Notes: generated by a model not told the origin, from the sequence alone. Positions 1,546-1,761 are shown, numbered from the stretch's first letter. The stretch is DNA of 64,000 nt from an uncultured Pseudomonadales bacterium (GCA_964357975.1 CAYHNG010000003.1:393-64392); one strand, 5' to 3'. Made by a program: numbers and translations.

Positions 1546-1725
1546 CTATTCTCCGCCAGTTGGTGTTTCTCCAGGAGCTCGTCTTACTTCTGAGGTTCTA
1601 GGTGTTTCACTTCCCTTTCTTCTTAGCGCTGGACTATGTTCCGGTGTCAGTGTAATCCTGTGGACTTCTTTAGCAAGTCCACCTGTCGGCGTTTCTGTTA
1701 TTCCGATCTTTTTAACTTCTATCAT
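1546..1725 (-). CDS. unannotated 59-aa ORF, a candidate precursor or substrate peptide (MIEVKKIGITETPTGGLAKEVHRITLTPEHSPALRRKGSETPRTSEVRRAPGETPTGGE)
   Basis: Hand-translated from the minus strand. ATG at 1725-1723 and TAG at 1548-1546. It fills the only non-overlapping gap (250 nt) in an otherwise stop/start-overlapping operon. A promoter-like TTGATA-18-TATAAG lies directly upstream, and the stop is 20 nt before the ATP-grasp start. It has no Cys or aromatic residues except His and is Thr/Pro/Gly/Glu-rich, with ETPTGG at both ends. Confidence 0.35.
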   Translation of the reverse strand: MIEVKKIGITETPTGGLAKEVHRITLTPEHSPALRRKGSETPRTSEVRRAPGETPTGGE

Positions 1726-1731
1726 AAATTA

Positions 1732-1761
1732 CTTATAGTAGTAATGAGCTTATACTATCAA
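1732..1761 (-). promoter_or_regulatory. sigma70-like promoter for the 59-aa ORF and the ATP-grasp gene (-35 TTGATA at 1761-1756, -10 TATAAG at 1737-1732); the transcript is predicted leaderless
   Basis: On the minus strand: TTGATA, an 18-nt spacer, TATAAG, then 6 nt to the ATG at 1725. Confidence 0.3.

Follow-up and report, generated by a model that had tools for sequence, protein, structure and literature searches.

The ATP-grasp enzyme RimK uses ribosomal protein S6 as its substrate, at the C-terminal Glu. Pup is a disordered protein of about 60 residues that ends in Gly-Gly-Glu or Gly-Gly-Gln, and the carboxylate of its terminal Glu is activated by ATP for amide formation; PafA and Dop have a glutamine-synthetase-like fold, not an ATP-grasp fold. 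In the LysW pathway, a kinase acts on the substrate once this has been tethered to the carrier. The substrate is joined to the C-terminal Glu of LysW, a small acidic protein, by the ATP-grasp ligase LysX (PMC12998189). Within a 64,000-nucleotide stretch of DNA from an uncultured Pseudomonadales bacterium (GCA_964357975.1 CAYHNG010000003.1:393-64392; the whole stretch is hereafter called the window), we find a 59-codon open reading frame (ORF) on the minus strand, directly upstream of the gene for an ATP-grasp ligase and within a cassette that also codes for a methyltransferase dependent on S-adenosylmethionine (SAM), a fusion of a radical SAM (rSAM) enzyme with a DUF3419-like SAM-transferase, a CoaE-like kinase and a B12-binding rSAM enzyme. 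We conclude that the ORF is a real, coding small gene. We also think it probable that its product is translated and serves the cassette as its dedicated substrate or scaffold, with the ligase likely forming an amide link at a motif Glu or at the terminal Glu, followed by tailoring.

The system works most like the carboxylate-amine ATP-grasp ligases that act on a gene-encoded partner (LysX/LysW and RimK/S6, with the logic of Pup/PafA), and it also resembles systems of rSAM-dependent peptide maturation; it is a member of none of these groups, and falls far short of the family cut-offs. The resemblance to LysW/LysX and ArgW/ArgX is that a peptide ending in Gly-Gly-Glu adjoins an ATP-grasp ligase and a kinase. 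Unlike LysW, the window peptide has neither a zinc-ribbon body nor an EDWGE tail, and most members of its family carry many copies of the motif internally; moreover, nothing in the LysW pathway corresponds to the two rSAM enzymes, the DUF3419-like domain and the methyltransferase. With the terminal Glu alone shared, no zinc ribbon and a ligase that misses the LysX-type cut-off, membership among LysW-like carriers was rejected. The peptide also ends in Glu (Glu59), as does the RimK substrate, whereas the candidate substrate here has a dedicated gene that adjoins that of the ligase, and conservation extends to five more enzymes; the ligase was rejected as a RimK-family member (TIGR00768, 49.6 against a cut-off of 143.4 bits). 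In contrast to Pup, sister loci carry the same tail on large proteins. Membership in the Pup system was rejected, as there is no Pup match in Pfam, the ligase has another fold, and a scan of 48 further ORFs of the window, all but fourteen short ones, turned up no PafA, Dop, Mpa or proteasome.

The closest characterised relatives of the ligase are the G domain of CphA1, the C-terminal domain of GshF and N-acetylglutaminylglutamine synthetase (Ngg), with which it is proposed to share carboxylate-amine chemistry. Compared with CphA1, the window ligase is a stand-alone domain of 334 residues without the N and M domains, and where CphA1 makes a non-ribosomal polymer, it has as partners a tail protein with a gene of its own and five tailoring enzymes. 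It was rejected as a cyanophycin synthetase, for which only the G-domain region matches (221 against 850 bits). A small peptide gene beside a gene for a SPASM/twitch-type rSAM enzyme, with a short motif in free sequence, recalls PqqA-PqqE of the PQQ pathway, MftA-MftC and SkfA-SkfB. As compared with these ribosomally synthesized and post-translationally modified peptides (RiPPs), no RiPP recognition element (RRE) or PqqD-like domain was found in the cassette, the motif has the form [GS]-E-[ST](-R), tails occur on proteins of up to 600 residues, and the set adds a CphA-like ATP-grasp ligase, a CoaE-like kinase and a BtaA-like transferase. In betaine-lipid synthesis, BtaA uses SAM as the donor of a 3-amino-3-carboxypropyl group for a hydroxyl, and the amine of that group is then methylated by BtaB. 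The cassette likewise pairs a DUF3419-family domain with a class I methyltransferase, but only the N-terminal 100 or so of the 385 profile positions (the SAM-binding part) match, and the acceptor would here be a peptide and not diacylglycerol.

The ORF (1546..1725, minus strand, including the TAG stop) begins with ATG and codes for MIEVKKIGITETPTGGLAKEVHRITLTPEHSPALRRKGSETPRTSEVRRAPGETPTGGE. The computed 59-residue translation is exactly the one given in an earlier reading made from the DNA alone (the sequence-only reading), which had proposed the product as a candidate precursor or substrate peptide. Because an in-frame TAA lies two codons 5' of the ATG, the ORF cannot extend further and its start is fixed. 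The motif ETPTGG is found near both ends, as that reading had noted (residues 11-16 and 53-58), with one more ETP between them at residues 40-42. The first copy, encoding (T)ETPTGG, lies at 1678..1696 on the minus strand (direct-repeat search, family D1), and the middle one, E40-T41-P42 within GSETPRTSE, at 1600..1608 on the same strand (direct reading of the sequence). The last copy merges with the C-terminal tail, (G)ETPTGGE, residues 52-59, which ends Gly-Gly-Glu-stop at 1549..1570 on the minus strand (the repeat part being 1552-1570); this tail, RRAPGETPTGGE, is the candidate target of the ligase. Cys, Trp, Tyr and Phe are all absent, again as claimed, and so are Asp, Asn and Gln. The peptide had been described as Thr/Glu/Lys-rich; Thr/Glu/Gly/Pro/Arg-rich describes it better (T9 E8 G7 P6 R6 K4). 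It is hydrophilic (grand average of hydropathicity -0.83) and probably disordered and cytoplasmic. The 20-nt gap to the ligase gene was confirmed, the stop codon of the peptide ending at 1546 and the ATG of the ligase lying at 1525; the peptide ORF starts 51 nt past the methyltransferase stop, within a 251-nt interval between the methyltransferase and ligase genes. The ORF was called unannotated, which is true of the ORF track then used, but in public data six metagenome contigs have a called gene for the same product (with record names beginning Hain_H41, labelled 01um or 02um, or from Logan assemblies), and the identical product of 59 residues is present in the protein collection that was searched.

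Since the peptide has no detectable homologue, related loci were traced through the ligase. The ligase has 277 homologues at E <= 1e-5, those listed being about 45-55% identical to it; a scan with the ligase alignment gave 50 genome loci and 80 metagenome loci, with homologues about 50% identical, and four more came from exact look-ups. The loci derive from Candidatus Peribacteria and Patescibacteria, from Pace-, Nano- and Woesearchaeota, from one metagenome-assembled genome (MAG) labelled Methanosarcinales, from many uncultured gut Clostridia and Bacilli/"Tenericutes", and from Bdellovibrionota and Muribaculaceae. The genome-derived cassette closest to that of the window is found in a Candidatus Peribacteria MAG. 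We defined the slot as a same-strand ORF ending at the start of the ATP-grasp gene, and 94 of 96 non-redundant loci had such an ORF. At least two [GS]E[ST] motifs were present in the slot ORF at 72 of the 96 loci, one at 7 and a terminal GE only at 4. At the other 13, the slot was either occupied by a motif-free ORF (11 loci) or empty (2 loci), and in several of these the wrong ORF had been chosen or the end of the contig intervened. Thus, the proposal of a precursor or substrate peptide is supported by a motif-rich ORF directly 5' of the orthologous ATP-grasp gene at most of about 96 loci from distant phyla. The search for homologous small ORFs that the sequence-only reading had suggested did yield ORFs at the equivalent position, through the ligase, while the peptide as query matched nothing else.

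The slot proteins, which we call tail proteins, are 30-600 residues long, and the gap from their stop to the ligase start has a median of 0 nt (5th to 95th percentile, -8 to +53). Their median motif density, 2.9 per 100 residues, is about 34-fold above the 0.085 seen at the same loci in ORFs with 200 or more residues. GE occurs within the last six residues of 52 of the 94 proteins, as compared with a background of at most 5%; the C-terminal types among these 52 are GESRW (20), GE (5), GEDR (5), GESR (4), GES (4), GERE (4) and others. The commonest tripeptide is ESR, with 332 occurrences in the 94 proteins, and the consensus motif is G-E-S-R. The residue that follows the motif Glu is Ser in 506 and Thr in 41 of 547 instances. 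The Ser codons of ESR are of both classes (AGY, 193; TCN, 139), and its Arg codons include both AGR and CGN, so that the constraint acts on the protein motif.

The bodies that carry the motifs are unrelated: Clostridia and Bacilli have charged coiled coils, DPANN archaea and Bdellovibrionota a domain of about 100 residues, loci L085/L087 a ClpB_D2-small protein, and L007, L057 and L060 a protein with a four-fold internal repeat. Searches of Pfam and NCBIfam with eight to ten tail proteins from other loci gave no family, only low-complexity noise. On these unrelated bodies, the conserved element behaves like a tag or tail and not like a fold. Examples are the tail protein of L014, MSESRGGESRSYSSYTPSYSSYGESRSSGESR..., and the ends of those of L012 (...SSSGESSGSSGESR-stop), L034 (...SGESRW-stop) and L047 (...GGESGGRSGGGES-stop). 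The extreme of multiplicity is a nanoarchaeotal protein of 241 residues (L023, 5274-5999), in which the domain of about 100 residues, shared with tail proteins of Bdellovibrionota/Proteobacteria, is followed by 19 GES(R/K/N) motifs. The type of tail follows the clade of the ligase in a neighbour-joining tree of 93 ligases. The window ligase groups with those of L057 (tail ...YSSSGE-stop), L085/L087 (...SSSSGE and ...SYSSGE), L060 (...YSSGGE) and L007 (...FYSSGE), whereas the tails of other clades are GES/GESS, GESR, ...GESRxG[YF]RxxGG, GE[DE]R and GESRW. The upstream proteins of these five clade mates have 483-600 residues and unrelated bodies, and all end G-E-stop, which strengthens the earlier remark that the C-terminal Glu of the peptide is of an acceptor type.

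The window peptide fits this family by position, motif and tail. Its stop lies 20 nt before the ATG of the ligase on the same strand, within the range of gaps in the family. It contains SET and GET (plus TET), or 3.4 motifs per 100 residues against the background of 0.085, and its end, ...TGGE-stop, matches the SSGE, GGE and SSSGE ends of its clade mates. Among the 737 ORFs of at least 25 residues in the six frames of the window, it is the only one to combine a high motif density with a GE end. The same order of methyltransferase, ORF and ligase genes as in the window is found at L066/L067, where the ORF has 106 codons; the L066 product aligns, with ...SGESPK--GPGESSSGG, to residues 17-58 of the window peptide, ...GSETPRTSEVRRAPGETPTGG (pairwise BLASTP), and its GESPK motif falls opposite E40-T41-P42. 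There is a precedent for a small ORF at the slot in L045/L126 (Peribacteria), with 49 codons and an end ...SLGESGSSN. We regard E-T-P as a Ser-to-Thr, Arg-to-Pro variant of the family motif, and the peptide as a minimal, divergent member of an undescribed family that is defined by its tail motifs, repeated at one end of the protein and mostly near the C-terminus, not by a fold.

Four independent lines mark the ORF as coding: the differences between the repeat copies, the rarity of such a repeat at this composition, the codon usage and the lack of an RNA alternative (see below). A direct repeat of 19 nt (1552-1570 and 1678-1696, 79% identity; spacing 126 nt, or 42 codons) encodes both copies of ETPTGG, which read GAA ACG CCG ACA GGT GGA and GAA ACA CCA ACT GGC GGA. 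Four of the 18 coding nucleotides differ between the copies, all of them at third positions and synonymous (P = 15/3060 = 0.005); the codons of the middle copy are GAA ACA CCT. Selection has thus preserved the amino acids and not the nucleotides. In 200,000 composition-preserving shuffles, a duplicated hexapeptide appeared in 0.04% and any tripeptide occurring three times in 1.1%. The in-frame codon-usage log-odds, scored after training on the 35 long ORFs of the window, is 0.05 per codon, above 99.9% of off-frame windows.

Several observations weigh against the peptide as a coding member of the family and as the substrate of the cassette. The codon-usage score is only at the 6th percentile of true in-frame windows of 59 codons, and the antisense frame is open too, as an ORF at 1636-1845 (+) with a similar codon-usage score. 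The seven public copies are identical in DNA sequence across the ORF, and the nearest ATP-grasp relatives are only about 55% identical. A word-index search of 5.8 billion proteins with the peptide returned only the peptide itself. Its motif is E-T-P and not the consensus E-S-R, with two copies that fit [GS]E[ST] and a third, T-E-T, that does not, and its pairwise similarity to syntenic proteins is weak (E = 0.007 for L066; 0.12 to 0.8 for others), so that the family assignment rests on position, motif and tail. Within the family, no tail ORF could be recognised at the slot in L064/L065, L127, L008 and L036; in L008 and L036 a repeat ORF lies elsewhere in the locus, not at the slot. GE near the C-terminus is missing from 42 of the 94 slot proteins, and many proteins have N-terminal motifs; a purely C-terminal mechanism cannot hold family-wide. 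Finally, no protease, transporter or RRE domain was found in the cassette.

Some of these points would be expected if the ORF were a chance frame in an untranslated spacer or structured leader of 251 nt: it is short and without sequence homologues, its codon score is low for a real gene, and the opposite strand is open as well. However, a chance frame does not account for repeat copies separated by synonymous differences only, for the agreement of motif, tail and position with the tail-protein family, or for the clear gene that elsewhere fills this gap at a median distance of 0 nt from the ligase. An untranslated structured leader, which the sequence-only reading had itself raised as the counter-case, was looked for directly. 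A search of Rfam with 1400-1900 at E <= 10 gave no relevant match, only one chance match to a snoRNA, and folding of the 251-nt interval gave a minimum free energy z-score of -0.16, no more stable than shuffles. We regard a chance frame as highly improbable. The antisense ORF would code for 69 residues and extends over the small gene into the 3' end of the methyltransferase gene. Overlapping the latter and having no syntenic counterpart, it was rejected as a gene; because that counterpart is missing, its openness appears to be a mirror effect of the coding strand.

The expression signals proposed for the ORF fared less well. The sequence does contain the hexamers TTGATA (1761-1756) and TATAAG (1737-1732), the spacer of 18 nt between them and the 6 nt that separate the second from the ATG (1732..1761, minus strand), and the hexamers had been taken as a promoter belonging to the ORF itself. 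They are unsupported as such: the -10 hexamer lacks the invariant final T, a consensus scan did not call the site, and promoter-like sites occur at chance density in 400-2600 (9 found against 6.3 +/- 2.2 expected from shuffles). No minus-strand terminator was found in the promoter and terminator scan of the region. The suggestion of a leaderless transcript is also unsupported. A Shine-Dalgarno-like motif precedes only 3 of the 35 long ORFs of the window, so that the missing motif is uninformative on leaderless translation. With its start 51 nt past the methyltransferase stop, the ORF is more simply read as co-transcribed. In its own right, the count of 3 in 35 suggests a genome that is largely without Shine-Dalgarno-led initiation.

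Tail gene and ligase gene, side by side, form the invariant unit, and the rest of the cassette is usual but not constant. Of the 87 loci whose upstream flank extends to 4.5 kb or more, about 80 have the same five other enzymes (tblastn with the window proteins); in the window, the B12-binding rSAM enzyme, the CoaE-like kinase, the rSAM enzyme, the DUF3419-like domain and the methyltransferase are all encoded at 1777-6392. The commonest order, at 52 loci, is B12-rSAM, CoaE-like kinase, rSAM, DUF3419, the ORF, ATP-grasp and methyltransferase, and that of the window, with the methyltransferase before the ORF, occurs at eight. The rSAM and DUF3419 proteins, fused in the window, are the products of separate genes at most other loci, and the methyltransferase gene is kept in the cassette either 5' of the tail ORF or 3' of the ATP-grasp gene. 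A natural fusion of an ATP-grasp ligase with a methyltransferase of the cassette type (P0092, 558 residues) links both activities. The tail ORF and the ligase gene remain adjacent where the cassette lies downstream (L085/L087) or is divergent (L045, L050), and also where there is no cassette within 6 kb (L039, L043, L048). We found no curated family and no paper in the literature for the cassette, the enzyme set or the motif, and the literature on DUF3419 yielded papers on betaine lipids only. The cassette is apparently an uncharacterised seven-gene system.

Three variant loci were noted. At L057, a gene at 4966-7074, 2.3 kb downstream of the homologous ligase, codes for a 702-residue fusion of an ATP-grasp domain with an rSAM/SPASM domain; the locus is without the usual cassette, and this fusion may be an alternative maturation module. 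At L064/L065 (4307-4977), only 26 nt separate the methyltransferase and ATP-grasp genes, and no motif-rich ORF was found within 5 kb. The tail protein of this locus, if there is one, must be encoded elsewhere. Its contig is linked to a Margulisiibacteriota protein through the listing of ligase homologues. L135 and L136 carry, at 4000-6000, tandem paralogous ATP-grasp ligases that are 37-39% identical to that of the window and have no tail ORF or cassette nearby; they probably belong to a different subfamily.

The ligase (521..1525, minus strand, 334 residues) is proposed to act on a Glu carboxylate of the peptide. In NCBIfam it matches cyanophycin synthetase (TIGR02068, 1.9e-65, 221 bits against a cut-off of 850) over profile positions 164-474 of 862, which we take to be the G domain. 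It also matches the C-terminal half of GshF (4.6e-47, below the cut-off), and Ngg is among its best matches. In the PDB, CphA1 is best (7wac, 6.7e-38; 7wac and 7lg5 around 1e-37). The ligase is remote from LysX (TIGR02144, 9e-14, 51.2 bits against a cut-off of 275.6; PDB 3vpd, 1.7e-4), from RimK (TIGR00768, 3.4e-13) and from Ddl. K109, D279, E298 and N300 are invariant in the alignment, and we read them, presumptively, as the usual ATP and Mg ligands.

The other four genes of the cassette lie on the same strand. The class I SAM-dependent methyltransferase has 230 residues (1777..2469; Pfam Methyltransf_25/11, 2e-16). The fusion of 630 residues (2466..4358) combines an rSAM domain (Pfam Radical_SAM, 1.5e-26), with CxxxCxxC at residues 30-37 and further Cys at 247, 265 and 312, and a DUF3419-like domain (2.8e-9). 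Its rSAM part resembles AhbD, MftC and NirJ in NCBIfam, all below cut-off, and SkfB (7.6e-16) and PqqE (2.6e-10) in the PDB, and it is also related to AlbA and StsB. The DUF3419 match (PF11899) scores 37 bits, above the cut-off of 28.2, but covers only profile positions 31-129 of 385; a fold search of the PDB with a model of the domain (pLDDT 84) gave a generic class I SAM-transferase fold, with a TM score of about 0.4 to methyl- and aminopropyl-transferases. The CoaE-like P-loop kinase (4355..5041, 228 residues, Pfam CoaE 9e-14) has GNIASGKS at residues 17-24 and scores 51 bits with TIGR00152, under its cut-off of 65.55. The B12-binding rSAM enzyme (5025..6392, 455 residues; Pfam B12-binding 5e-13, Radical_SAM 1e-24) has CxxxCxxC at residues 198-205 and resembles BchE, HpnJ, PhpK and the MCR Gln C-methyltransferase in NCBIfam, all below cut-off; its matches to peptide C-methyltransferases are to the MCR Gln methyltransferase (1e-28), ApyD (4e-25) and TIGR03975 (4e-20). 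Every NCBIfam match of a cassette protein is below the cut-off of its family, so that none is a member of a curated equivalog. No PqqD-like match was found among the cassette proteins in Pfam, and the 59-residue peptide matched nothing in PADLOC, Pfam or NCBIfam. With the cassette, PADLOC returned only generic domains (viperin-like rSAM, methyltransferase) and not a known defence system.

In the mechanism that we propose, the ATP-grasp ligase would recognise the tail of the peptide, activate the carboxylate of a motif Glu as an acyl phosphate and join an amino compound to it through an amide bond; in the window peptide, the obvious site would be the C-terminal Gly-Gly-Glu. The two rSAM enzymes (one of them B12-dependent), the CoaE-like kinase, the DUF3419/BtaA-like transferase and the methyltransferase would then tailor residues of the tail or the attached group. 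To our knowledge, the nearest characterised relatives of the ligase all form an acyl phosphate on the carboxylate of a peptide or amino acid and then an amide with an amine. It is because these relatives carry out amide chemistry at carboxylates that we infer an action of the ligase on Glu; the carboxylate used, the group attached and the roles of the other enzymes are likewise given here as inferred. As the terminal Gly-Glu is the only feature common to the tails of the clade, the C-terminal Glu as acceptor is the best-supported specific guess for the window peptide. The internal and N-terminal arrays of motifs elsewhere argue that the family as a whole must also involve chemistry at the side chain (gamma) or a direct change to the motif. 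By analogy with BtaA, the hydroxyl residue after the Glu would be a natural acceptor for aminocarboxypropyl transfer, which we offer as a lead only.

Other readings of the chemistry were weighed against this one. In a sub-model of our own reading, the tail protein would be a carrier or scaffold, after the logic of LysW/LysX or of the pearlins, and not itself the product: the ligase would join an amino acid to the tail Glu, and the kinase, the rSAM enzymes, the DUF3419-like transferase and the methyltransferase would build on this a small molecule, to be released later. A G-E-stop end common to all the tail proteins of the window's ligase clade would suit such a carrier, in the manner of LysW, to whose C-terminal Glu LysX attaches the substrate (PMC12998189). 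LysX is moreover a detectable relative of the ligase (9e-14 with TIGR02144, 1.7e-4 with 3vpd), the tailoring enzymes resemble enzymes of small-molecule and cofactor pathways (CoaE, AhbD/NirJ, BchE/HpnJ/PhpK, BtaA), the bodies of the tail proteins are unconstrained, and no RRE was found. Yet the peptide, with neither a Cys nor a match in Pfam, lacks a zinc ribbon of the LysW type, the ligase is far nearer to the G domain of CphA1 and to GshF than to LysX, the cassette contains no hydrolase for release, and the up to 19 internal copies of the motif (L023) and the N-terminal arrays call for an extra assumption, attachment to the side chain of an internal Glu. We therefore hold the carrier sub-model to be doubtful. 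Alternatively, the motif Glu, Ser/Thr and Arg/Pro could themselves be the targets, as in a classical RiPP or a protein modification, and the modified peptide the product; the motif residues would then undergo rSAM cross-linking or C-methylation, phosphorylation, or alkylation at a hydroxyl. The kinship of the rSAM enzyme with SkfB, PqqE, MftC, AlbA and StsB and that of the B12-binding rSAM enzyme with peptide C-methyltransferases are consistent with this. So is the conservation of a hydroxyl after the Glu, as Ser (506) or Thr (41), and as Thr in the window. Repeated short motifs support it further, because they are typical of the precursors of multi-core RiPPs. Conversely, there is no leader/RRE architecture, since the CxxxCxxC of the rSAM enzyme starts at residue 30 and no PqqD-like match was found; the motifs occur on proteins of up to 600 residues with folded domains, unlike leader-core peptides; the tails of the window's clade end at Glu with no Ser or Thr after it; and the cassette has no protease or exporter. 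Direct modification of the motif seems to us possible, if short of probable.

The homology of the ligase to the G domain of cyanophycin synthetase, which extends a C-terminal carboxylate with Asp, together with its relationship to the RimK family (3.4e-13) and the C-terminal Glu of the peptide, would also fit repeated addition of an amino acid such as Glu or Asp to that Glu, giving a polyanionic tail, in line with the RimK analogy drawn in the sequence-only reading. RimK is, however, only a distant relative (49.6 bits against the cut-off of 143.4), and such tailing would leave the conservation of five further enzymes, two of them rSAM enzymes, and the internal and N-terminal motif arrays unexplained; we think it unlikely. 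The first suggestion of the sequence-only reading was a graspetide, in which the ATP-grasp ligase makes omega-ester or omega-amide rings between Thr, Ser or Lys and the side chains of Glu. A Glu does adjoin a hydroxyl residue in every copy of the motif, and the small peptide gene lies beside an ATP-grasp gene. Nevertheless, no ligase of this kind was among the top NCBIfam matches or the PDB matches at E <= 1e-3, Lys is not conserved in the motif, and the tails that end at Glu have no partner residue downstream. The graspetide suggestion is thus unsupported, because the ligase is closest to the G domain of cyanophycin synthetase and to GshF, with Ngg also among its nearest relatives, and we consider ring formation very unlikely.

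Returning to amide formation on a dedicated substrate or scaffold, there is a real chance that the chemistry is new. More speculatively, and with a good deal of doubt, the loci might represent a new scaffold system in which the ATP-grasp ligase loads an amino compound on the Glu of a short G-E-(S/T) tag, terminal in the window peptide and present in several copies in others, and the other enzymes build on it a previously unknown modification or metabolite, for example a betaine-like or diphthamide-like one, as a portable chemistry of genome-reduced, host-dependent lineages. If that were so, the portable tag would be found in bacteria of the candidate phyla radiation, DPANN archaea, RF39-like Bacilli, small gut Clostridia and Bdellovibrionota. 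The system as observed spans bacteria and archaea with very small genomes and Firmicutes of the human and animal gut; lineages that shed biosynthesis and yet keep two rSAM enzymes and a tail-motif ligase probably have an important use for it. The position before the ATP-grasp gene, the [GS]-E-[ST] motif and a tail that matches the clade have here rescued as a gene an ORF below the threshold for calling, and form a criterion that can be used again. As the smallest predicted natural substrate among the loci examined, the 59-residue peptide is the most convenient entry to the chemistry.

Directly upstream of the cassette and on the same strand (6838-8421, minus) lie genes for a trio of membrane proteins, of the TspO/MBR, DUF2177 and DUF1295/steroid-reductase-like families. 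The trio also precedes the cassette on the metagenome contig L001, which is identical to the window wherever the two were compared. The remainder of the window is that of a bacterial chromosome, with genes for RecA, GluRS, RelA/SpoT, RNase Y and SecDF. The only Rfam family that reaches its gathering score in the window is the class A bacterial RNase P RNA, full-length at 37765-38073 (+) with 118.8 bits. An alpha-2-macroglobulin-like protein of 1755 residues is encoded at 55511-60778 (-), with Big_5, MG2, A2M_BRD and A2M domains and, as an unusual insertion, a PT-HINT (pretoxin Hint) stretch (residues 1059-1138) that separates the bait region from the A2M domain. A gene at 53745-55514 (-) codes for a 589-residue fusion of a Memo-like domain with PGA_cap, a domain like that of CapA in the synthesis of poly-gamma-glutamate capsules. 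Transketolase is split in two genes at 14821-16722 (+), one for the N-terminal part and one for the pyrimidine-binding and C-terminal parts; a DUF4147/MOFRL glycerate-kinase-like gene comes before them and a gene for an FAD-linked oxidase after them.

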